This document shows, piece by piece, positions 1-10,863 of a DNA stretch of 64,000 nt. Numbering within the stretch: the first letter of the stretch is position 1; each line of letters starts with the position of its first letter. The position numbers and the translations under genes were made by a program. Where the stretch lies: assembly GCA_963677925.2 (NCBI GenBank), contig CAXXYH010000003.1, positions 1,248,001 to 1,312,000 on the forward strand. The letters run 5' to 3'. The notes below the pieces were generated by a model. It saw nothing but the letters and a program-made list of their open reading frames with translations. It did no database searches and had not been told where the DNA came from. Source of the stretch: Spirochaetia bacterium. GTDB taxonomy: Bacteria > Spirochaetota > Spirochaetia > UBA9216.

Positions 1-1556
1 GCAATTGAATTTTTACCTGAATTTTTTACCTTGTACATTGCTGTATCAGCTTCATTGAGTATCCGATCAAGATTTTCATGATTACCGCCTTCAACAAGGC
101 TTACACCGATACTTGCTCCAATATTTATCTCATGTCCTTTGATTATGAGTTTCTCATCTATTGCAGTTAGAATTTTTTTTATTACGATATCACACTCTTT
201 TTCACCGGACACACGGGGAAGAAGCACTATAAATTCATCGCCTCCATACCGTCCTACCGTATCAGAACTGCGAAGGACCGACCTCATTTTATGCCCGATA
301 TTCTGAAGAAGCAGATCACCTACATCATGGCCAAACTGATCATTGACATTCTTGAATCCGTCAAGATCAATGAAGCAGACGGCAATTTTATAATGATATC
401 GGTCAGCAAGCTCCAGCTGCCTTGTAATTCTGTCGAAAATCAGATTTCGATTCGGCAAATCTGTCAGGTTGTCATAGAGGGCGGCATGTTCCATTGATTT
501 ACGGTATTTATTCCGCTGTATTATTATCCTGGATATAAGCAGAGTCCCGACAATATCAAACAATAAAATAATCAGAGCAAGAATGGTATACCGGTATTGA
601 AAATCTTGGGGTCCCATTCCGAATTCCTCTGCTCTTATAAAGTGAATAAGAAACCAGGAATTTTCTGAGTTATCAATAAAATCAAGCTCCTCATAGGGGT
701 TTATCTTTAAAGCTGAAACCAGAACCCTATTTTTATAAACCTGATAAAAATCATTATTCTGCATAGACTCCCAGACTTGAGGACATTCAAGGCTGAAAGA
801 AACTGCCTCCCGATCTGGGAACATGAACCCCCATTCTTTTTCAGGATCATTACGGTAAAGCCAGTCGCCGTTTTCATTAGCCAGAAAAAAACTTCCCGGA
901 TTATTCAGGGTCAGGTTTTCAAAAATATCAATCAAATTATGCCCCAGAAAATTCAGTACAACAGCGCCCTTCAGTTCACCGTTATGATAGACAGGACTTC
1001 CTATCCGAATCATTGGCTTTAAAGGTTTTTCAATCCTTCCGTTCTCTATATTCAAATCAAACAGTGAGATGTAAACCTGGCCTTCATGAAGTTTAACTGT
1101 CTCTGTAAAATAATACCTGCTATATTTATCCTGCAGCTGTTCTTCTGAAACAAGTACAGGCTTTCCATCAACCAGATTAACACGAACAATTTCCATTCCG
1201 GTTTCATCAATATATCGAACCTGATCAAAGACTCTCTTATTTTCGCTGAAATTAAGCAGATCCTGCTGCAGTTTATTTTTTTCGAGACCTGTTTCAATCA
1301 GGCTGTGCAGTGATGATAAAACAGTCAGAAATTTCACATCGTAGACAAGTTCCTTATAATAATCTGAAACAATTTCTGACTGAGCCTGAAGCAGCCGTTC
1401 AGAATCACGACCTTGCGTATTTATATGTTCTGATCTATGAGAGAGGACAGAGATAGTATATATACCGAAACTTAATACTATTACTGCTGAAAGTGTTTTG
1501 GCGACGATACTTCCTGACGCTAAAGCTTCTTTTAAAATCTTTTTATATTTATGCAT
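1..1556 (-). CDS. Membrane-anchored sensor diguanylate cyclase (GGDEF); 3' end runs off the window start
   Basis: Absent from the ORF track because no stop codon lies in the window. Hand translation from ATG 1556 gives MHKYKKILKEALASGSIVAKTLSAVIVLSFGIYTISVLS (TM helix). The same frame gives VGRYGGDEF at about 231-257. Confidence 0.85.
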   Translation of the reverse strand, partial: MHKYKKILKEALASGSIVAKTLSAVIVLSFGIYTISVLSHRSEHINTQGRDSERLLQAQSEIVSDYYKELVYDVKFLTVLSSLHSLIETGLEKNKLQQDLLNFSENKRVFDQVRYIDETGMEIVRVNLVDGKPVLVSEEQLQDKYSRYYFTETVKLHEGQVYISLFDLNIENGRIEKPLKPMIRIGSPVYHNGELKGAVVLNFLGHNLIDIFENLTLNNPGSFFLANENGDWLYRNDPEKEWGFMFPDREAVSFSLECPQVWESMQNNDFYQVYKNRVLVSALKINPYEELDFIDNSENSWFLIHFIRAEEFGMGPQDFQYRYTILALIILLFDIVGTLLISRIIIQRNKYRKSMEHAALYDNLTDLPNRNLIFDRITRQLELADRYHYKIAVCFIDLDGFKNVNDQFGHDVGDLLLQNIGHKMRSVLRSSDTVGRYGGDEFIVLLPRVSGEKECDIVIKKILTAIDEKLIIKGHEINIGASIGVSLVEGGNHENLDRILNEADTAMYKVKNSGKNSI

Positions 1557-1674: not shown

Positions 1675-2844
1675 CTAATTAAGCGACAACAGAACACCCG
1701 CAGCAATTGCAGAGCCTATAACTCCGGCTACGTTGGGGCCCATTGCGTTCATAAGCAGGAAGTTGCCCGGATCTTCTTTCTGGCCGACCTTCTGTACTAC
1801 CCGCGCAGCCATCGGTACAGCAGATACTCCTGCGGCTCCGATCATCGGATTGATCTTTCCGCCGCTTATCTTGCTCATCAGCTTTCCAAGCATAACTCCG
1901 CCGCCGGTTCCTACTCCGAATGCTATACATCCGAGTACTATAATGAATATCGTCTCAAATGTAAGGAAGTGGTCGGCTGACATCTTTGAACCTACTGATA
2001 TTCCAAGGAATATCGTTACTATGTTGATAAGCTCGTTCTGGGCTGTCTTTGAAAGCCTGTCTACAACTCCGCATTCCTTGAACAGGTTTCCAAGCATAAG
2101 CATTCCGATAAGCGGTGCTGATGCCGGAATAAGCAGGGCTGTAACTATTGTTGTGATTATCGGGAAAAGAATCTTGGTCCGTTTTGAAACAGGCTTCGGA
2201 TCCTCCATCCTGATAAGTCTTTCCTTCTTGGTTGTAAGAGCCTTGATAATAGGCGGCTGTATAATCGGTACAAGCGCCATATACGTATAGGCTGCTACTG
2301 CAATAGGTCCAAGCAGATGCGGTGCAAGCTTAGATGTGAGATATATAGCTGTAGGACCGTCAGCCCCTCCGATTATTGCGATGGAAGAGGCCTCTGCAAA
2401 GTTGAAGCCCAGATCATGCGCAGCAAGAAAGGGGATTGCTCCAAGAGCCTTGGCTCCAAGCAGGGTTATAAATATACCAAGCTGGGCAGCTGCTCCCAGA
2501 AGAAAGGTCTGCGGCTTGCCCAGAAGCGGTCCGAAGTCCGTCATCGCTCCGATTCCCATGAAGATAATCGGCGGGAACAGTCCAAGCTGAACACCCTGAT
2601 AAAAGTAATATATAAGTCCGCCGGCCTGGTCTCCGATTGGTCCTTCCAAAAGCCCTGTAAGCGGAAGGTTTACCAGTATTGCTCCGAATCCTATCGGGAT
2701 AAGCAGCAGCGGCTCATAACCCTTTGCTATTGCAAGGTAAACAAGCAGACAGCCGATTGCAATCATTACCAGGTTCTGCCAGGTGATTGCCGTGAAGGCG
2801 GTGCTGCTTAGAAATCTTAATATTAGATCTACGAAATTCACCAA
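1675..2844 (-). CDS. mmdB: Na+-translocating decarboxylase beta subunit (OadB/MmdB/GcdB family)
   Basis: Motifs [42 protein letters not shown] and [12 protein letters not shown]; highly hydrophobic. Confidence 0.95.
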
Positions 2845-2853
2845 ATCCCTCCG

Positions 2854-3330
2854 TTAGCCGATGTCTACAAGCGGCTGTCCTTCGGTTACGTTTGTACCCG
2901 GAGTTACATGGATGGCGTTTACTGTACCGGCGTTGCTTGCAAATACTTCAATGTCCATCTTCATTGCTTCCATTATCAGAAGAAGATCTCCCTTGGCTAC
3001 GCTTGCGCCCTGGGCTACCTTGATTTCCTTGATTGTTCCTGTTATTGCAGCCTTCTCGGTTCCGGCTCCGGCTGCTACAGGGGCGGCGGCTGGTGCCGGC
3101 GCGGCGGCTGCGGGAGAGGGTGCTACAGCTGCCGGTGCAGGCGCTGCCGGTGCAGCAGGAGCTGCAGGCGCAGCGGGCGCTGCTACAGGAGCTGCTGTTG
3201 CTCCTGCAGGGGTTGCAAGGCTTACAAGGTAACTATCGCCTTCATGCTCAATTGTAAGGACATTTCCGTTTCTTGTTACGTTTATGTCGTAAAGGGTTCC
3301 TTCATATTCAAACTTAATATTCTTGCTCAT
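2854..3330 (-). CDS. mmdC: Biotin carboxyl carrier (gamma) subunit
   Basis: EAMKM biotinylation motif near the C-terminus; Ala/Pro-rich linker. Confidence 0.93.
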   Translation of the reverse strand: MSKNIKFEYEGTLYDINVTRNGNVLTIEHEGDSYLVSLATPAGATAAPVAAPAAPAAPAAPAAPAPAAVAPSPAAAAPAPAAAPVAAGAGTEKAAITGTIKEIKVAQGASVAKGDLLLIMEAMKMDIEVFASNAGTVNAIHVTPGTNVTEGQPLVDIG

Positions 3331-3335
3331 AACTC

Positions 3336-3722
3336 TTATACTCCTGGTGCTTTTCTTGTGATTTTATTGTTTGCGACCCACGGGTCATACTTTGCTGCTC
3401 CCGCTGAACTCCATCCTGAAGCCTTTGGGGCATTCTGCTCATCTTCCTCAGCTGCCAGAAACGCTGATACCGCAGCCGAAAGCCATTTCGCGTTATCGGC
3501 CATTGTAGCAGTTGCTGCTGCAACTATTACTGGCAGGGGCAGGCCGCCGCTCTTCTTTGCTGAAGATGTCCCGGCAGATTTCGGCGCTTTGCTTTTGGCT
3601 GTATCACCGTCTGCAAATTTCTTTATCAGAACCATCAGCAGACTCAGAAGGACCAACAGTGTAAACACTATCAGTATTCCAAGTATTGATGTCATAACAC
3701 TGTAAATAAATTCTTCCTGCAT
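3336..3722 (-). CDS. mmdD: OadG/MmdD-family membrane anchor (delta) subunit
   Basis: Single N-terminal TM helix (ILGILIVFTLLVLLSLL), an 'IVAAA' segment and a C-terminal W-containing motif; lies between the alpha and biotin-carrier genes. Confidence 0.8.
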   Translation of the reverse strand: MQEEFIYSVMTSILGILIVFTLLVLLSLLMVLIKKFADGDTAKSKAPKSAGTSSAKKSGGLPLPVIVAAATATMADNAKWLSAAVSAFLAAEEDEQNAPKASGWSSAGAAKYDPWVANNKITRKAPGV

Positions 3723-3737
3723 AAAACTCTCCGCCTC

Positions 3738-5288
3738 CTACAGTGGTATATTGCCGTGTTTCTTGGCAGGTCTGTCTTCACGCTTTTTGATGTTGATTTC
3801 AAGCGCTCTGATGAGTTCTGCACGGGTGTATTCGGGGTCGATTATGTCATCTACAAGACCTAGGCCTGCGGCTACGTAGGGGTTCATGAACTCTGTCTGG
3901 AACTCTGCTATCTTTTCCTGTCTCTTTGCTTCAGGATCCGATGCTGAGTTGATGTCCTTTCTGAATATGATGTTTGCTGCGCCCTCTGCTCCCATTACTG
4001 CTATTTCTGCTGTCGGGTATGCAAGGACTCTGTCATATCCAAGAGACTTGGATGACATTGCTATCATTGAACCGCCGTAGGACTTTCTCATAATCAGTGA
4101 AATCTTGGGCACTGTCGCCTCTGCTATTGCGTAGAGGATCTTTGCTCCGTGTCTGATGATTCCGCCGTGCTCCTGGGCAACGCCGGGAAGGTAGCCGGGG
4201 ACATCAACAAGTGTGATTACCGGAATATTGAAAGCATCACAGAAGCGGATGAACCTTGCTCCCTTATCTGATGAGTTGATATCAAGTGAGGCAGCCATGA
4301 ACTTGGGCTGGTTTGCAAAGATACCTACAGTGCGGCCGTTGAGTTTTGCAAAACCTACTACTACGCTTTTTGCGAAGTCTTCCTGTACTTCAAGAAATGA
4401 ACCTGCGTCAAAGGCGCTTCCGATTATGTCGCGTACATCGTAGGGCTTTCTTGCCTCTTCGGGGATGATCGACATGATTTCGGGTGTGGTTCTTTCAAGT
4501 GAATCTGTACAGGCACTTACCGGCGGCTGCTCTGTGTTGTTTGAAGGCAGGTAGTCCATAAGTCTTCTGATGAAATCAAAACATTCCTGCTCGGATGAAA
4601 AACGGAAGTGGGCGACTCCGCTTTTTGCACAGTGAGCTGATGCTCCGCCGAGGTCTTCGTGGCTGATTACCTCACCGGTTACTGTCTTTATTACATCCGG
4701 ACCGGTGATGTACATGTGACTTGAACCGTCTACCATGAATATGAAGTCGGTGATGGCCGGTGAGTAAACTGCACCTCCGGCACAGGGACCGAGTATTACT
4801 GAAAACTGGGGGATAACTCCTGATGAAAGGGTGTTATTCCTGAAAATTTTGGCGTATCCGTTGAGTGAGAGTATTCCCTCCTGGATTCTTGCTCCGCCTG
4901 AATCGTTGACCTGGATAAACGGTGAACCGTTTTTTAGTGCAAGGCTCTGGGCCTCTGCAATCTTTTCGGCATGCATTTCTCCAAGTGAACCGCCGAGAAC
5001 GGTAAAATCCTGGGCTGACAGGAATACCTGCTTGCCGTTCATCTTGCCTGTTCCGGTTACGACTCCGTCGCCGGCAAACTTGTTTTTATCCATGCCGAAC
5101 TGACTGGTGCGGGTCTGGATGTATGCCTGGCTTTCAACGAAACTTCCCTCATCCAGAAGTCCGGTGATCCTTTCTCTGGCGGTAAATTTCCCTTTATCAT
5201 GCTGGGCTTTGATTCTGGCGTCGCCGCCGCCCTTCTGCATTTTTGCTCTGAAGTCTTTAAACTCCTGAAGCCGCTCATTGTTATTCAT
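3738..5288 (-). CDS. mmdA: Acyl-CoA carboxyltransferase, (methyl)malonyl-CoA decarboxylase alpha subunit
   Basis: Motifs QDFTVLGGSLG, DSGGARIQEG, GPCAGGAVYSPA, DVPGYLPGVAQEHGGIIRHGAK and C-terminal KKHGNIPL. Confidence 0.93.
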   Translation of the reverse strand: MNNNERLQEFKDFRAKMQKGGGDARIKAQHDKGKFTARERITGLLDEGSFVESQAYIQTRTSQFGMDKNKFAGDGVVTGTGKMNGKQVFLSAQDFTVLGGSLGEMHAEKIAEAQSLALKNGSPFIQVNDSGGARIQEGILSLNGYAKIFRNNTLSSGVIPQFSVILGPCAGGAVYSPAITDFIFMVDGSSHMYITGPDVIKTVTGEVISHEDLGGASAHCAKSGVAHFRFSSEQECFDFIRRLMDYLPSNNTEQPPVSACTDSLERTTPEIMSIIPEEARKPYDVRDIIGSAFDAGSFLEVQEDFAKSVVVGFAKLNGRTVGIFANQPKFMAASLDINSSDKGARFIRFCDAFNIPVITLVDVPGYLPGVAQEHGGIIRHGAKILYAIAEATVPKISLIMRKSYGGSMIAMSSKSLGYDRVLAYPTAEIAVMGAEGAANIIFRKDINSASDPEAKRQEKIAEFQTEFMNPYVAAGLGLVDDIIDPEYTRAELIRALEINIKKREDRPAKKHGNIPL

Positions 5289-5350
5289 TCTAAGCTCCTG
5301 AATTTCCCAAAAAATTGTGAAAGAATGTAATTTAATTCTTAATACTCAAA

Positions 5351-5376
5351 TTATCCGTAATATAGATTACGGATAA
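5351..5376. other. Intercistronic hairpin between madM and mmdA
   Basis: TTATCCGTAAT-atag-ATTACGGATAA, an 11-bp perfect inverted repeat without a clear U-tract; possible mRNA stabiliser or processing site. Confidence 0.5.
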
Positions 5377-5404
5377 TCAGATTTCCATTTATATACTAAA
5401 CTTA

Positions 5405-6166
5405 CTAGAAAATAGCGTTAACTATCAGATACCCTACTGAAGGACAAAGAAGTGTTCCAAGTCCTGTATAGAAAGTTGCAGTCATTGCACCGTAGGGAAC
5501 AAGCTTGATATCGGTAGCCGCAAGTCCGCCTGCAACACCGCTGGTTGTTCCGATAATTCCGCCGTATACCATTGCTGTAGTCGGGTTATCAAGACCGATC
5601 TTCTTGGCAATGAGCGGTGTCATAATCATTGTAAGAACAGACTTAACAACACCTGCTGCAACAGACAGGGCAACAACCGAAGAACTGACGCCCAGGGCAT
5701 CACCTGTAACAGGACCTACAATGAAGGTAACTGTACCTGCACCGATTGTTGTGAGTTCTTTAGGATCAACAAAGCCGAGTATACGGGCAATTATGACTCC
5801 TACTACGAATGAGAATATTACTCCTATAAAGAGCGATACAACGCCTGCCAATCCTGCTTTTTTAAGATTCTCCATCTTAACACCATATGCTGTTGATACA
5901 ATGGTGTAGTCTCTGAGGGCACTTCCTCCAAGTATGAGAAAACCTGCAAAAAGAGGCAGATCAGCAAGACCTTTTTTTCCGCCGGTGAATTTACCGGCAA
6001 CATATGCAAGAATAAGGGCAAGTATGATTGCAAAAGCAGATCCCATCTTTCCCTGTTTGATCATTTTTGCTACATAGTAAGCAAGAAGCATCGCAAGAGC
6101 GACAAAACCGAAAGCGAGGACAAGGTGATCACGTCCCATGATACTGTTCATTATTTTTGCAATCAT
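5405..6166 (-). CDS. madM: Malonate transporter subunit MadM
   Basis: Motifs GSAFAIILAL, GGKKGLAD, GGSALRD, GTVTFIVGPVTG, GTTSGVAGGLAATD and LVPYGAMTATFYTG. Confidence 0.92.
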   Translation of the reverse strand: MIAKIMNSIMGRDHLVLAFGFVALAMLLAYYVAKMIKQGKMGSAFAIILALILAYVAGKFTGGKKGLADLPLFAGFLILGGSALRDYTIVSTAYGVKMENLKKAGLAGVVSLFIGVIFSFVVGVIIARILGFVDPKELTTIGAGTVTFIVGPVTGDALGVSSSVVALSVAAGVVKSVLTMIMTPLIAKKIGLDNPTTAMVYGGIIGTTSGVAGGLAATDIKLVPYGAMTATFYTGLGTLLCPSVGYLIVNAIF

Positions 6167-6540
6167 ACTTCTTCTCCTTTATCTTTACCAAGTTTGGCTA
6201 CTAATGGTACAAGAAACAGTGAAGCTATAGTTGCAATGCCTCCGGCCAGAAATGCAACCGCACCGCCGTCAACTGCAGCTACAACATTCTGGGATGCTGC
6301 CATAGCAACAACAACCGGAATGTAGATAGAACTCAGAAAAAGTATTCCGTTTTCAGTTTTTGGACTGAAACCGCCCTTTTTTGATTTTTGAACTCTTGCA
6401 GTAACAATAACCAGAAGAAGCATTGCTATACCTACACCGCCGACATTACCCCCGATGCCGATTACCGCACCAAGAATTCTGCCGATGAAATTTCCGACAA
6501 AGTAACAGGCTGCTACTATTCCAAGGCCGTATATTTCCAT
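6163..6540 (-). CDS. madL: Malonate transporter subunit MadL
   Basis: MEIYG start, NVGGVGIAMLLL and YIPVVVAMAASQNV; 4-nt overlap with madM. Confidence 0.92.
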   Translation of the reverse strand: MEIYGLGIVAACYFVGNFIGRILGAVIGIGGNVGGVGIAMLLLVIVTARVQKSKKGGFSPKTENGILFLSSIYIPVVVAMAASQNVVAAVDGGAVAFLAGGIATIASLFLVPLVAKLGKDKGEEV

Positions 6541-6579
6541 ATCCTTTTCTCCTTAAACTTAAATTTGGTTTTAATAGTT

Positions 6580-7803
6580 TTATTTTTTGTCGAAGACAAC
6601 TCCGCTGTTCAGCAGTTCTTCAACTTTTTCTTTTGAATATCCGAGTTCATTCTGCAGATATTCAATTGTGTGCTCCCCAAGTCCGGGAGCCGGTGTTCTG
6701 ACTGTACCGGGAGTTTCCGTCATTTTAAACGGAGATCCGGCCATAGTTACTTTACCAACTCCGGGCTGTTCAACATCAACTATCATTTCGCGGTAAAGCA
6801 GGTTCGGGTCTTTTACAACCTTATCAATTGTGTTCAATGGTGAATACGGCAGGCCGTTTTCATCAAGAAGCTTGATCCATTCTTCGGATGTCTTCTTTTT
6901 CATTTCAACATCCAGAATTCTGACCAGTTCATCTCGGTTCTGTGTTCTGAGAGGATTAGTTTTGAAAAGTTCATGATCAGTCAGATCTTCTCTTTCAATA
7001 AGTGTACAGAATTTCTTCCAGAGAGAATCATTACCGATAGGTGTTATAACCCAGCTGCCGTCACTTGTTTCAAATGCCTGAAACGGAGTTATGGTCGGGT
7101 GAGCACTTCCGAGAGGTACGGGAATTTCACCTTTGGCAGTGTATCTGACAATTGCATTCTCAAGAATGTACACAAGACCGTCTACCATGGAAATATCTAT
7201 ATGCTGTCCTTCGCCGGTTCGGTTTTTATGCTGCAGAGCTGCAAGAATGCCGATCGCACCCTGATGCCCTGCAACTACATCACCTACAGACGAGCCTACA
7301 CGTACCGGAGCTCCGCCGAGGGGTCCTGTGATACTCATCAAACCGCTGAATCCCTGTGCAACCATGTCGTATGCCGGACGGGTTGCATACTCGGGAAGAG
7401 CATCATGTCCGAATCCGCAGATTGAGCAATAAATAATTCCGGGATTTATTTTTTTTAATTCTTCAAATGAGAAACCAAGTTTTCTCATGGTTGTCGGACG
7501 GTAGTTTTCAACTACGATATCCGCATCCTTAATCATGTCCGTCAGCAGAGCCTTACCTTCATCTTTTTTAAGATCAACACAAATACTCTTTTTATTTCTG
7601 TTAATACTGATGAAGTAGCCGCTCTGCTTACCGTCGCCTTCCTGTTCATCGATAAAGGGTCCGAAAGCCCTTGAATCATCACCGATAGGGGGTTCAACTT
7701 TTACAACATCAGCCCCCATATCTGCCAGAATCATCGTGCAGAACGGAGCAGCAAGTACATGACTAAGATCGACTATTTTAATTCCTTCCAATGCCTTTTT
7801 CAT
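6580..7803 (-). CDS. Family III (CaiB/BaiF/Frc) CoA transferase, candidate acetyl-CoA:malonate CoA transferase
   Basis: Motifs LEGIKIVDLSHVLAAP, LADMGADVVKVE, NRNKKSI, VENYRP, GD (catalytic Asp region) and APGLGEHT; SD AGGAGG. Confidence 0.92.
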   Translation of the reverse strand: MKKALEGIKIVDLSHVLAAPFCTMILADMGADVVKVEPPIGDDSRAFGPFIDEQEGDGKQSGYFISINRNKKSICVDLKKDEGKALLTDMIKDADIVVENYRPTTMRKLGFSFEELKKINPGIIYCSICGFGHDALPEYATRPAYDMVAQGFSGLMSITGPLGGAPVRVGSSVGDVVAGHQGAIGILAALQHKNRTGEGQHIDISMVDGLVYILENAIVRYTAKGEIPVPLGSAHPTITPFQAFETSDGSWVITPIGNDSLWKKFCTLIEREDLTDHELFKTNPLRTQNRDELVRILDVEMKKKTSEEWIKLLDENGLPYSPLNTIDKVVKDPNLLYREMIVDVEQPGVGKVTMAGSPFKMTETPGTVRTPAPGLGEHTIEYLQNELGYSKEKVEELLNSGVVFDKK

Positions 7804-7924
7804 AAAGGCCTCCTGTGATTTTTGTTTTCACAAAATCACTTGATCACTAATAAATTGAATTAAACACACTCTTTCACAATGTTATTTTCTTGAAACCTCC
7901 AGGGGCTCTCTTTTTTTTATGAGC

Positions 7925-7959
7925 AAAAAAAAAGAGAAGTATTCTGACACTACTTCTCT
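7925..7959 (-). terminator. Intrinsic terminator/attenuator between hutP and the catabolic genes
   Basis: mRNA reads AGAGAAGUA-GUGUCAGAA-UACUUCUCU-UUUUUUUU (9-bp stem plus U-tract); two UAG triplets overlap its 5' arm. Confidence 0.85.
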
Positions 7960-8029
7960 AATACACGCGTTAATAAAATTTCACTACAGGGACTGAACAC
8001 TAATACACACTAAATTTTTTCAGTCCTGT
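7950..8029 (-). promoter_or_regulatory. Putative HutP-binding UAG-repeat leader
   Basis: Five UAG triplets (plus-strand CTA at 8010, 8000, 7984, 7958, 7950), four of them UAGUG. Two lie in the loop of hairpin ACAGGACUGAA/UUCAGUCCCUGU (7986-8029). Confidence 0.65.
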
Positions 8030-8046
8030 TTATACACAAATAAATA

Positions 8047-8469
8047 TTATTTTAAATGCATAACCCCAAGCGCACACCGCTCATGGTTTGTTATTGGATA
8101 GAAGGCGGAATCACCGTAAATCGCAACAGCAACCCATTCCTCATTGGTAACAATGCCCACCTTAAGTTTCAGGCTGGCCTCTGCCGGAACACTGCTGATA
8201 ACACCGTTAAGCGCTTCAAGGGCAGCATGAAGAACAGCATGAACCTGCGTTCCGGTTTTTTTGATCAATCCATTCTGAAGTGAACAACCGACGATTGATT
8301 TTACAAAACTCTTCTTGATATCGGAGGTCAGACCGGTAATAAAAGTCACCGCAAGTTTTTCCTTTCCGATAGTGTTATTGACTTCGGCCTTAATCTGGCG
8401 CTCTTCTTCTTCATCAGACATAGCAGCAAGAAGTGCCATTTTTCCAATACGATCCGTATTCAACTTCAT
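8047..8469 (-). CDS. hutP: HutP-family RNA-binding antiterminator
   Basis: 140 aa; RIGKMALL, HAVLHAALEALNGV, EWVAVAIYG and HERCALGVMHL parallel Bacillus HutP (RIGRLSVL, HALYHATMEALHGV, DWIAVSLYG, HETFGVGINHI, recalled from memory). Confidence 0.88.
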   Translation of the reverse strand: MKLNTDRIGKMALLAAMSDEEEERQIKAEVNNTIGKEKLAVTFITGLTSDIKKSFVKSIVGCSLQNGLIKKTGTQVHAVLHAALEALNGVISSVPAEASLKLKVGIVTNEEWVAVAIYGDSAFYPITNHERCALGVMHLK

Positions 8470-8477
8470 GTTTAGTC

Positions 8478-8507
8478 ATACTACACTCGGAAATGCACAA
8501 TTGTCAA
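8478..8507 (-). promoter_or_regulatory. Sigma70 promoter of the hutP operon
   Basis: TTGACA (8507-8502), 18-nt spacer, TAGTAT (8483-8478); 8 nt upstream of the hutP ATG. Confidence 0.7.
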
Positions 8508-8554
8508 TAAAAAAACTAAAGCTATCGGGGAATTTTTATCTATATATACAGAGA

Positions 8555-10765
8555 TCAACCATCAAAATTTCTATATTCACGGCTGAACCTGCCGGGTATT
8601 GCAATACAGAACGATGTTCCCTGCTTAGGTTTTGAATCAACAGTAATACTGCCGTCCAGGGCATCAACAATATTTTTCACAATGGCAAGACCAAGGCCCA
8701 TACCGCGGTGTATTTTTGTATAAATATTTTCAAGCTGCTGAAAGGGCTCAAAAATCAGAGGTAAGTCTTCCTTTTTAATTCCTGGTCCTTCATCTGAAAT
8801 TTTAAGGATGAGTTCATCCGCCAATTCAGTAATAGTACATATGATATCACCCTTATCAGAATATTTTATTGCGTTAGTAATAAGATTGTTAACAACCTGG
8901 GCAATACGGGTCTCATCTCCGTAAAAATATCCCGACTCATATTTTTTAAAAACTGACAGTTCAAGGTCCTTCATTTCCATAGAATCTCTGAAAATTTCGG
9001 AGGCAAGCATTGCCAGATTATCAATTCTGAAAAACTGCTTATTAATGGAAATTTTCCCGATACTGAACTGAGTGAAGTTCAGAAGATCCTCTATTATTGT
9101 CTTCAGGTTTTCAGAGGAAACGAGGGCAAGTTTATACCACTCACGTTCTTTATCGGTGAAAGAAGCTCCGGAGATCAGGGTGAGCATTCCGAAAACCCCG
9201 TTAAGAGGTGTCCGGAGTTCATGGCTGATATTTGCAAGAAAATCATTTTTTACTCTAAGAGCTGTTTCCGCCTTAATTCTTGCATGCTCCATCTGTTCGG
9301 ATATTTTTATTTTTTCAGTTACATCGTGTATGATCGCATATAGATATTCATGATTGCCTGTGCTAAGCCGTCCGCTGAATATCTCGACATGACGTGTGTC
9401 TTTCTTTGCAAGCTTTATTCTCATAGTCCTGCCGGATAATTCATCAAACTTGAAAGAACCTTCTTCAACATTCTCTTCATCGGCAAGCAGATTGTAAAGC
9501 GACAGATTTTTCAGAGCTTTTTCAGGATATCCAAGATAATCCATTGCAGCCTGATTCAAATCGATAATTCTGCTTGTAACCGGTTCGAACAGAATGATGA
9601 TTGATGTATTGTCATAAAAGAGACTTCTGTATTTCATTTCACTCTGACGAAGAGCTGACTCAGCCTTTTTCCTGATATTAATATTTATGAGTGAAAATAG
9701 AAGTAAAACTGCCATTATACTGAAAATGCTTACCGAACTTAGCACCAGAACCTTATTTTCCCTGAGAAAACTGTAAGGTCTGTTTATGATTTCAGAGTCG
9801 TTTGGCAGTTTTCTCAAACTGACTCCGAATCGCTTAAGTTCCTGAAAATCAAATATATAATGATTTTCAGCATCGCTCCGTATTGGCATTGAAGCCGAAG
9901 ATTCGCCGTTCAGGATTTTAAGGGCAGTTTCTGCGGCACTGATGGCCTGCTCATAATGACTAATCACCCTGCCTCCGAAAACACCGTCGCCAAAACCATG
10001 ATACCAGAGATGAAAGAGCGGGATTTTCAAATTCTCATAGATTATATTGAGGCTCTCATTGAAGAGCATGTTATTACCTTCACTATCAGTATAAGCAGAC
10101 AGGAGCAGTATACTTGTATCTCTTCCCAGACCGGAAAGAACCGCTGCAAATTCCTGCCATGAATAATCTTTAAGAGATATCGTTCTGAACTTATATGAAG
10201 GATACTCGCCCTGAAGCTCATTGAAAGCTCTTTCATCAGCAGTTCCGCTGGTAGTTGCATCTGAAATTGCTGCAATGGTTTCAGTTGAAGGGAAAAGAGA
10301 AATCATCAGCTCAATAGTATCCTTCATTGAGACGGCTTCAATGAACCCTGTAACCAGCGGATCATCATTATAACTCAGCGCCTGAGCGATATCATTAACC
10401 CCGAAAAACACTATCGGAACATCTTCAAAAAACTCATCCCGCATACTCATGCAGAAAGCAAGCGCATTATCATCAGCGGTGATTACCAAATCATATTTTG
10501 GAACATGCTGAAACTTATAGGTAATAAAATCTTTCCTGAGATTGATGACCTGTCCTGTATTAAAACGCTTTGAATCCAGGAATTCCATATCCAGAAGTAC
10601 ATGCTGCTTATCCAGTACAGAACGCAATCCGTCAATCTGATGATTGAAGGTTGGAAATGAGGGATTATATGAACTAATAAATAGGATTCTTTTAAAATGA
10701 TCATGAGCAGAGGCCGGCAGACATAACGTCAGCATAATCAGAATCAGGACACACTTCTTAAGCAT
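8555..10765 (-). CDS. Sensor histidine kinase (periplasmic SBP-like sensor, TM, PAS, HisKA/HATPase)
   Basis: FLANISHELRTPLN H-box, NLITNAIKY, DEGPGI and GMGLGLAI; signal peptide. Alternative start 10795. Confidence 0.92.
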   Translation of the reverse strand: MLKKCVLILIMLTLCLPASAHDHFKRILFISSYNPSFPTFNHQIDGLRSVLDKQHVLLDMEFLDSKRFNTGQVINLRKDFITYKFQHVPKYDLVITADDNALAFCMSMRDEFFEDVPIVFFGVNDIAQALSYNDDPLVTGFIEAVSMKDTIELMISLFPSTETIAAISDATTSGTADERAFNELQGEYPSYKFRTISLKDYSWQEFAAVLSGLGRDTSILLLSAYTDSEGNNMLFNESLNIIYENLKIPLFHLWYHGFGDGVFGGRVISHYEQAISAAETALKILNGESSASMPIRSDAENHYIFDFQELKRFGVSLRKLPNDSEIINRPYSFLRENKVLVLSSVSIFSIMAVLLLFSLININIRKKAESALRQSEMKYRSLFYDNTSIIILFEPVTSRIIDLNQAAMDYLGYPEKALKNLSLYNLLADEENVEEGSFKFDELSGRTMRIKLAKKDTRHVEIFSGRLSTGNHEYLYAIIHDVTEKIKISEQMEHARIKAETALRVKNDFLANISHELRTPLNGVFGMLTLISGASFTDKEREWYKLALVSSENLKTIIEDLLNFTQFSIGKISINKQFFRIDNLAMLASEIFRDSMEMKDLELSVFKKYESGYFYGDETRIAQVVNNLITNAIKYSDKGDIICTITELADELILKISDEGPGIKKEDLPLIFEPFQQLENIYTKIHRGMGLGLAIVKNIVDALDGSITVDSKPKQGTSFCIAIPGRFSREYRNFDG

Positions 10766-10863
10766 ATTTAAATTATATGAAAGATGAAAGCGCAATGCAA
10801 TTATTATTTCATTTCTTCCGGCGACCCTTGAATTCCATTAAAAATAATCTGGTTTAAATTAAT

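Follow-up and report, generated by a model that had tools for sequence, protein, structure and literature searches.

A HutP-family protein gene and a candidate antitermination leader with an 8-nucleotide repeat at the head of putative malonate genes in a Spirochaetia bacterium

Introduction

In this work we examined a stretch of 64,000 nucleotides (nt) from a Spirochaetia bacterium (the window; NCBI GenBank assembly GCA_963677925.2, contig CAXXYH010000003.1, positions 1,248,001 to 1,312,000 of the forward strand), centring on a minus-strand gene for a 140-amino acid (aa) relative of the RNA-binding antiterminator HutP and on the leader that separates this gene from a set of genes that reads as a malonate-use operon. 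A preliminary description of the locus, made from the letters of the DNA, had proposed a HutP-type antiterminator with a UAG-repeat attenuator, apparently re-purposed for malonate genes. In the model system, as set out in passages of PMC12591593 and PMC2425495, L-histidine (L-His) and Mg2+ activate the hexamer of Bacillus subtilis HutP, whose binding destabilises a terminator. Passages of PMC12591593 further describe that each of the two faces of this protein binds three NAG units with spacers of 2-4 nt, and that the hut RNA holds two clusters of three NAG joined by a linker of ~20 nt.

Results

The first gene encodes a HutP-family protein

The element around which the locus is organized is the following gene:

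8047-8469, minus strand: gene of the HutP family (140 aa), at the start of the conserved block

That a hutP homologue opens the operon, as the preliminary description had claimed, was borne out by profile and structure comparisons. The 140-aa protein scored 108.9 bits against the Pfam family HutP (PF09021, gathering score 25), with a match that runs from residue 8 to residue 137 and takes in model positions 1-128 of 128, and phmmer matched it at E ~5e-5 to HutP chains of known structure from Bacillus and Geobacillus. An AlphaFold2 model built with 15 relatives as input reached a mean predicted local distance difference test (pLDDT) of 88.2 and a predicted template modelling (pTM) score of 0.85, and when this model was compared with the PDB by Foldseek the top 10 matches were all HutP (TM 0.66-0.74, E 1.5e-8 to 1.3e-6), placing the protein in the HutP fold, an alpha/beta arrangement with a four-stranded antiparallel sheet. 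No other gene of the HutP family is present in the genome (5.04 Mb, 99.63% complete).

Next, we aligned the protein to B. subtilis HutP with HMMER. Residues H77, H81 and H129 fall at the columns of His73, His77 and His138, which we take to be the metal ligands, and a Glu is kept at the column of B. subtilis Glu81. The three histidines are invariant in 15 of 15 aligned sequences and, counted by clade, in 30/30, 10-11/11 and 10/10. The HxxxH motif and the Glu that follows it were therefore correctly recognized in the preliminary description, but the third histidine is H129, within an invariant PITNHER motif, and not the C-terminal H138. The columns of Tyr69, Tyr76, Arg88 and Arg98, residues that presumably line the L-His pocket, are occupied by T, L, S and L (T74, S92 and L102 for Tyr69, Arg88 and Arg98), as had been noticed before, although this alignment is of low identity and one-residue register errors are possible in these columns. 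The roles given to RNA-contact residues of HutP are likewise an assumption on our part.

Membership of the family did not extend to the functional group, since the score against the NCBIfam HutP equivalog NF002838 was 39.9 bits, below the cut-off of 155. We conclude that the product of 8047-8469 is a genuine HutP-family protein but not an orthologue of the histidine-responsive HutP, because the equivalog score, the pocket residues that we assume, the downstream targets and the RNA site (the last two described below) all depart from that type.

The leader carries (A/U)GUG and GAG units every 8 nt

The leader between the HutP-like gene and the following gene is 243 nt long, and these features were located in it:

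7986-8029, minus strand: hairpin H, whose loop shows a period-8 pair UGUG-N4-AGUG (GUG at 8006-8008 and 7998-8000)
7982-7986, minus strand: single UAGUG directly 3' of hairpin H
7948-7966, minus strand: site T, a triple GUG-N5-GAG-N5-GUG with an 8-nt period
7925-7959, minus strand: intrinsic terminator (5' arm 7951-7959, 3' arm 7933-7941, U-run 7925-7932)
7867-7877, minus strand: pair P, GUG-N5-GUG, downstream of the terminator
7829-7848, minus strand: site R, a triple AGUG-N4-AGUG-N4-UGUG with an 8-nt period
7815-7840, minus strand: hairpin R, with its 5' arm inside site R and its 3' arm at 7815-7824

The leader RNA quoted in the preliminary description is present exactly on the minus strand, with five UAG in a 105-nt stretch, two UAGUG in the loop at 7986-8029 and a sixth UAUUAGUG at 7847, which belongs to site R. 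The UAG triplet itself, however, turned out to be at chance level when the leader was compared with 2000 dinucleotide-preserving shuffles (6 observed, shuffle mean 4.86, with 34% of the shuffles reaching 6), and UAG was rejected as the unit of a UAG-repeat attenuator. What exceeds expectation is a longer and more regular signal: UAGUG occurs 5 times (mean 0.55), GUG 13 times (mean 5.25), pairs of G[A/U]G exactly 8 nt apart 6 times (0.30 in shuffles) and triples at this spacing twice (0.01 in shuffles), and none of the 2000 shuffles reached any of these four values. The three-unit period-8 repeat RNA can be written (AGUGNNNN)3. Genome-wide, 61 period-8 G[A/U]G triples were counted in 5.04 Mb on both strands, and the two in the leader are the only ones that lie less than 300 nt from each other; the same triple scan found no second cluster in the genome that would point to a wider regulon.

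An RNA site of the B. subtilis type, with two NAG clusters and 2-4-nt spacers, was not recovered, the units here being GUG or GAG at period 8 with 5-nt spacers. A repeat of NAG at period 6-7 was also considered and rejected, as it is not conserved; the lone short-spacer NAG triple of the window, at the terminator, is missing from the aligned sequences of two related loci, L003 and L004 (related loci are numbered in this way below). Rfam, searched over 7500-8800 at E up to 10, gave four chance-level matches only and no known RNA family.

The hairpin and U-run at 7925-7959 agree with the terminator anticipated after the hutP homologue. The hairpin has 9 pairs and a 9-nt loop (-9.8 kcal/mol) and is followed by 8-9 U, and units 2 and 3 of site T occupy its 5' arm and the first bases of its loop. 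The layout is thus the one known for HutP, regulator gene, intrinsic terminator and structural genes, and it recurs in related loci. At the other end of the leader, the 3' arm of hairpin R stops one base before the Shine-Dalgarno sequence AGGAGG (7809-7814). A short inverted repeat is also present in the site R region. A promoter scan shows no site on the minus strand between the terminator and site R, and the idea of a promoter there was rejected. In addition, pairing is possible between the terminator U-run and an A-run situated 6 nt further downstream (7906-7938, CUCUUUUUUUUU-GCUCAU-AAAAAAAAGAGAG); this element is kept in the near-identical L002 and not in L003, and Rfam gave a chance microRNA match for it.

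Many relatives of the protein lie beside malonate genes of two kinds

A word-indexed search returned 49 relatives of the 140-aa protein. When HMMER was run exhaustively against 1.84 billion cluster representatives, only 69 passed E <= 1e-3 and 48 passed E <= 1e-10, so that the clade is a small one. Its distribution is patchy, as the gene occurs in just 4 of the 401 genomes searched in the class of the window's own organism (3 besides its own). For the analysis of gene neighbourhoods we used 61 loci, a tally that is not dereplicated, obtained from scans of one genome per species and of Joint Genome Institute (JGI) metagenomes and annotated within the stored flank by tblastn with the window proteins and with Pfam-checked proteins from the loci.

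Malonate genes adjoin the HutP-like gene in 34 of the 61 loci, in agreement with the proposal that a hut-like layout was re-used for malonate genes. MadL/M, MadA, MadB-type or CitG neighbours were found in 25, and a coenzyme A (CoA)-transferase was the sole tested neighbour in 9, a figure that includes five Sporomusa loci and several contigs that end there. The CoA-transferase follows the HutP-like gene directly in 20 loci, and an Mmd/OAD-type decarboxylase is the neighbour in 3. Two unrelated malonate systems are represented, one of the CoA-transferase/MadLM/Mmd type and one of the acyl-carrier-protein (ACP) type, CitG-MadB-BirA-MadA, the latter in six Rhodobacter species, spirochaetes and Negativicutes. 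The two routes share the substrate and the biotin/Na+-pump module, and their activation steps, CoA transfer and an ACP-based enzyme, are unrelated.

The hosts belong to Spirochaetota, Caldisericota and Negativicutes and include Rhodobacter capsulatus and Sporomusa malonica. Both of these species reportedly degrade malonate via malonyl-CoA, according to a report of 1994. Growth of S. malonica by malonate decarboxylation, and MadLM as the Na+-malonate symporter of Malonomonas, are described in passages of PMC8085960.

A quick maximum-likelihood tree of 52 distinct proteins separated three groups: a main group of 30 proteins that includes the one in the window, a Negativicutes group of 11 with CoA-transferase and Mad contexts, and an AllH group of 10. 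The genes of the AllH group (L019-L023, L047, L049-L055 and L062; Caldisericota and metagenome contigs) stand 7-26 nt ahead of AllH/FdrA-like/cyclase/AllG-type (oxamate carbamoyltransferase-like) genes, have no leader, and showed no repeat array within 400 nt upstream.

Several single loci have arrangements of their own. Tandem HutP-family genes, 53-58% identical to the window protein, occur in L005, L006, L037 and L039 and may form a mixed oligomer or serve two specificities. V-type ATPase genes come directly after the HutP-like gene in L009-L011 and L048, and partially in L046; ahead of the ATPase, L046 and L048 have an OAD-beta gene. In L006 (3552-5560) a V-type ATPase also comes immediately before a tandem pair of hutP genes and malonate decarboxylase genes, and this arrangement, as read from gene order, suggests that decarboxylase and ATPase form one regulated Na+-cycle module to which the V-ATPase contexts would be linked. 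The spirochaete locus L012 (7992-10537) carries a HutP-like gene and a CoA-transferase followed by a BKACE-family enzyme and a major facilitator superfamily (MFS) transporter, with no MadLM/Mmd there, and its substrate may be different. In S. malonica (L030), the hutP/CoA-transferase pair is flanked (3493-5769, 7811-9799) by a PocR-MCP protein, CheW and a GGDEF-EAL protein.

The 8-nt period is shared by most leaders and the unit changes with the protein clade

To compare RNA signals we took the 37 dereplicated leaders (9133 nt in all) that lie between a HutP-like gene and the next gene, excluding spacers shorter than 70 nt and those of AllH type (7-26 nt). Written as DNA, the coding strand of these leaders holds 275 GTG against 61 CAC and 129 AGTG against 13 CACT, and two GTG stand 8 nt apart 71 times against 2.2 in shuffles, with further peaks at distances of 16 (22 times) and 28 (23 times). 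In 27 of the 37 leaders, one or more GTG pairs at 8 nt are present. An unbiased scan of 19 of the 26 main-clade leaders, from which three tandem-array leaders and four near-copies were excluded, recovered AGTG as the top over-represented 4-mer (78 against 21.7, in 19/19 leaders) and GTG at distance 8 as the strongest spacing among the 64 trimers (49 occurrences, the next best having 20).

The main-clade consensus of the unit is uuA-G-U-G-w, with GUG in 127 of 137 units, and within this clade G[AT]G is repeated at a distance of 8 nt 83 times and at 7 nt 5 times. In the Negativicutes clade 22 of 23 units are GAG: leaders of Sporomusa, L057 and L059 have GAG units at the 8-nt spacing instead, with the triple GAG-N5-GAG-N5-GAG in 3 of the 4 Sporomusa leaders. 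The RNA word and the protein clade therefore change together. Residues R7, K10, F43, C62 and K101 are specific to the main clade and could go with the choice of GUG or GAG, a lead only, drawn from the alignment. The preliminary description had looked to homologue leaders for a conserved UAG element with a terminator; terminators do recur, and the conserved element is (A/U)GUG or GAG, not UAG.

The single sites of the window can also be followed. The triple of site T is at the equivalent place in L003, L004, L032 and L043; hairpins like H, whose loops show 2-3 GUG units although their stems have no sequence in common, were found in L004, L032, L043 and L007 and not in L003 (5 of the 6 folded); a sequence like pair P, GUGAAAnAGUG, is visible in L004/L033, L032 and L043; and site R, together with hairpin R, is conserved in 5 of 5 close orthologues.

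Applying a simple criterion, a hairpin next to a U-run, we found that period-8 units touch the 5' arm of the terminator in 16 of the 37 leaders (the window, L003, L004, L005, L006, L008, L025, L027, L029, L030, L031, L032, L035, L043, L044 and L057); this criterion missed a visible terminator in L045. Between spirochaete, Caldisericota, Sporomusa and other Negativicutes loci the stem sequences bear no relation to one another (for example, window, GAGAAGUA; L008, AGUGACC; Sporomusa, GAGGGACAGAGUGGAAU), and it is the arrangement of terminator and repeat itself that is kept or reinvented across lineages.

Some leaders are far more elaborate. Those of L006/L037, L038 and L042 consist of long tandem arrays of GUG-N5-GUG pairs ~17 nt apart, with a 28-nt super-period, reaching ~450 nt in L006/L037 and ~20 units in L037. 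In each of these array leaders a separate promoter-like site follows the hutP gene; a terminator closes the leader in L006 and L037, and in L038 and L042 the locus breaks off within the array. Period-8 AGUG/UGUG units are also found 110 nt upstream of the HutP-like gene in L007, as a triple, and in L012, where the regulator may be autoregulated in both cases.

Genes downstream and upstream in the window

The genes that follow the leader, read on the minus strand, are:

6580-7803, minus strand: family III CoA-transferase (Pfam CoA_transf_3, 424.9 bits)
6163-6540, minus strand: MadL (NCBIfam equivalog 127.8, above the cut-off of 113.45)
5405-6166, minus strand: MadM (NCBIfam equivalog 307.7, above the cut-off of 236.3)
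3738-5288, minus strand: carboxyltransferase, MmdA-like, below the MmdA cut-off
3336-3722, minus strand: small subunit, OadG-like, from profile matches
2854-3330, minus strand: biotin carrier, from profile matches
1675-2844, minus strand: OAD-beta Na+ pump subunit, from profile matches

By their equivalog scores MadL and MadM are a predicted malonate:Na+ symporter pair, and by its profile matches the block 1675-5288 is a predicted biotin-dependent Na+-pumping acyl-CoA decarboxylase. The carboxyltransferase scored 780.1 against the alpha subunit of methylmalonyl-CoA decarboxylase (TIGR01117), below the subfamily cut-off of 998.8, a result compatible with a related enzyme that acts on another acyl-CoA, plausibly malonyl-CoA. 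The CoA-transferase scores below all NCBIfam equivalog cut-offs and is a candidate malonate:acetyl-CoA CoA-transferase. Taken together, the genes of 1675-7803 look, from their family assignments, like a pathway of malonate uptake, CoA transfer to malonyl-CoA and Na+-pumping decarboxylation. The control expected of HutP over hutHUIGM is thus not what is found here: as the preliminary description had stated, no hut genes follow, malonate genes taking their place, and neither urocanase (HutU) nor histidine ammonia-lyase (HutH) was found in the organism's own genome.

Upstream of the HutP-like gene a promoter-like sequence was located:

8478-8507, minus strand: TTGACA-18-TAGTAT, 10/12 matches, ending 8 nt before the ATG of the HutP-like gene

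Such matches are no commoner than chance (3 found, shuffle mean 2.6), so that this one is weak by itself. L003 has TTGACA-17-TAAGAT at an equal distance from the ATG, several other loci have a -10-like box 6-11 nt ahead of it, and no Shine-Dalgarno sequence is visible before the ATG of the HutP-like gene. The mRNA of this gene may be leaderless, because the promoter-like site ends 8 nt before the ATG. Farther out, a sensor kinase gene with an ABC-substrate-binding-like domain and a PAS domain lies upstream (8555-10795, minus strand), and a gene for a Cache-GGDEF protein lies downstream of the operon (3-1556, minus strand).

Discussion

A model for control of the malonate genes

From the comparisons above we infer RNA binding, a hexamer, the direction of control, the ligand and a role for site R. 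The 140-aa protein would be a ligand-gated RNA-binding antiterminator of the HutP fold. Transcription would start before the HutP-like gene and normally halt at the terminator 90-120 nt downstream of it. The activated protein, probably a homohexamer with two three-site RNA faces by analogy with its homologues and in view of RNA units that come in pairs and triples, would bind single-stranded (A/U)GUG/GAG units 8 nt apart. The first contact could be the pair in the loop of hairpin H, acting as a landing site, and the second the triple of site T; units 2 and 3 of this triple form the 5' arm of the terminator, which could not fold once they were bound, and RNA polymerase would then read into the CoA-transferase, MadLM and decarboxylase genes. 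The second module, pair P and site R beside the ribosome-binding site, probably adds control of translation or of mRNA structure. In other loci the leaders range from one triple on the terminator to arrays of ~20 units that could load several hexamers.

The activating ligand in this model would be malonate with a divalent metal held by the three conserved histidines. Malonate is a bidentate metal chelator, and it is plausibly the likeliest ligand because it is also shared by both activation routes, a proposal drawn from gene neighbourhood. We consider antitermination via the period-8 repeats, whatever the ligand, to be probable; the full model, with malonate as activator, is evenly balanced between right and wrong, and is rated lower because its ligand is deduced indirectly.

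Several observations weigh against this reading and have to be set beside it. A consensus terminator scan of 7700-8650 found 0 terminators, the 9-nt loop being one base longer than the 3-8-nt window of the scan; the terminator is AU-rich, and the fold of the whole leader is unremarkable (z = -1.5). Covariation is thin: RNAalifold on 5 alignable orthologues gave a terminator of 13 pairs of which 1 shows compensatory changes (GC/UA/AU), at the sole free spacer position in the arm, the remaining pairs being fixed by the repeat, and 0 of the 10 predicted pairs of hairpin R covary, so that its structure is inseparable from sequence conservation. Stem covariation, which the preliminary description had singled out, was thus seen in one place and not in the other. 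No GTG pair at 8 nt was found in 10 of the 37 leaders (L024, L056, L058, L059, L057, L029 and four of Sporomusa), and the G[A/U]G unit was chosen after the data had been seen, although the unbiased k-mer scan recovers AGTG and the spacing of 8. With regard to gene context, 4 of the 61 loci have V-type ATPase genes only, 14 have AllH/FdrA-type neighbours with spacers of 7-26 nt and no repeat array found, and 6 have none of the tested genes near the HutP-like gene. Lastly, the results do not separate malonate from malonyl-CoA, acetate or another signal of Na+-decarboxylase metabolism.

Alternative explanations

The alternative that survives best retains the RNA mechanism and puts another ligand in the place of malonate: malonyl-CoA, acetyl-CoA or acetate, a divalent metal by itself, or some cue tied to the Na+-cycle lifestyle. 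We regard it as unlikely, if still deserving of attention. Relatives with the same repeat precede V-type ATPase genes in L009-L011 and L048 and, in L045, an Mmd-type decarboxylase with no CoA-transferase in the stored flank, and in L006 a V-ATPase stands shortly before the two hutP genes and the genes for malonate decarboxylase, all of which could be accommodated by such a signal. It has to contend with two routes that use malonyl-CoA and malonyl-ACP, respectively, for which free malonate is the obvious shared small molecule, and with the fact that the transporter under control is a predicted malonate symporter; substrate induction is, moreover, the rule in catabolic operons.

A negative regulator comparable to TRAP, whose binding at site R or hairpin H would block translation or favour termination in the presence of ligand, seems to us quite improbable. 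Site R and pair P come after the terminator, 15 nt from the Shine-Dalgarno sequence, and are as conserved as site T, as this explanation would expect; against it, the units lie on the terminator's own 5' arm in 16/37 leaders, where binding must disfavour the terminator, and the folds showed no antiterminator helix that binding could disrupt.

Very unlikely, in our judgement, is that the repeats are DNA operators of another DNA-binding regulator, for example a partner of the neighbouring histidine kinase, and that the HutP-like protein has nothing to do with them. The sensor kinase gene directly upstream and the short inverted repeat in the site R region would suit such operators, but the kinase is found only in the near-identical L002, whereas the repeats trail the HutP-like gene in every gene context, and they are direct, confined to the coding strand (AGTG 129 against CACT 13), overlap RNA terminator arms and switch from GUG to GAG along with the HutP clade. 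That a classical histidine-responsive HutP lies by chance beside malonate genes is scarcely credible, for its Pfam match and conserved metal histidines are outweighed by an equivalog score of 39.9 against 155, the lack of HutU and HutH in a 99.63%-complete genome, the replacement of the L-His pocket columns that we assume, and RNA units and spacing unlike the described NAG sites.

Comparison with known regulators

Antitermination through the period-8 repeats, the reading that we prefer, has its closest counterpart in HutP and the hutPHUIGM operon of B. subtilis (PDB 1VEA, 1WMQ, 1WPV, 3BOY). The two systems share the Pfam family and fold, the order of regulator gene, intrinsic terminator and structural genes, the metal-site histidines, and the use of short RNA units in threes with an upstream cluster and a terminator cluster. 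They differ in that the window protein has ~23-29% identity to B. subtilis HutP and falls below the equivalog cut-off, and its columns for the presumed L-His pocket are replaced; its unit is (A/U)GUG or GAG every 8 nt instead of NAG with 2-4-nt spacers; a further module lies by the ribosome site; malonate genes take the place of hut genes as targets; and the hosts are Spirochaetota, Caldisericota, Rhodobacter and Negativicutes, not Bacillus.

A comparison of HutP with TRAP is made in passages of PMC2425495. Considered beside the window system, the TRAP of Bacillus is likewise ring-shaped, recognizes numerous (G/U)AG-type triplets set at even intervals in a leader and controls both termination and translation, but its fold is unrelated and its binding promotes termination, whereas the units of the window are on the terminator arm itself, which points to antitermination. 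As for malonate, the known regulators that respond to it in malonate decarboxylase or malonate-use operons are MdcR, of the LysR type, and MdcY/MatR, of the GntR type. These are DNA-binding transcription factors, unlike the window system, which would be an RNA-binding switch at the terminator.

A search of the literature, with supplements outside its reach, and in part judged by title or abstract, found no publication that connects HutP with malonate or that treats a HutP relative serving anything but a hut operon, and in the parts drawn on here the 2025 review PMC12591593 names only Bacillus hut operons for HutP. A malonate role and an (A/U)GUG period-8 RNA code have not yet been described for the HutP family.

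Implications

The literature presents HutP as an antiterminator of Bacillus that is specific for histidine. If the model is true, a different ligand, RNA word and register would make the HutP fold a reusable ligand-gated RNA switch, and the pair found here a compact new protein-RNA combination for synthetic control. A wider proposal, which we put forward tentatively as a serious candidate that falls somewhat short of the full model, is that the HutP fold serves generally as an RNA clamp gated by metabolites, the present clade being a malonate sensor in which malonate chelates the His-bound metal in the place of L-histidine, the 8-nt register and the middle base co-evolve with the protein, and the same protein gates translation at the ribosome site.

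The finding also delimits what looks like the gene set of CoA-dependent malonate fermentation, CoA-transferase, MadLM and an Mmd-like Na+ pump, which is present as well in the culturable S. malonica. If the model holds, malonate catabolism would have here its first regulator that acts after transcription initiation, and malonate its first switch at the level of RNA; the regulator would have spread across at least 4 phyla along with Na+-pumping malonate fermentation modules.

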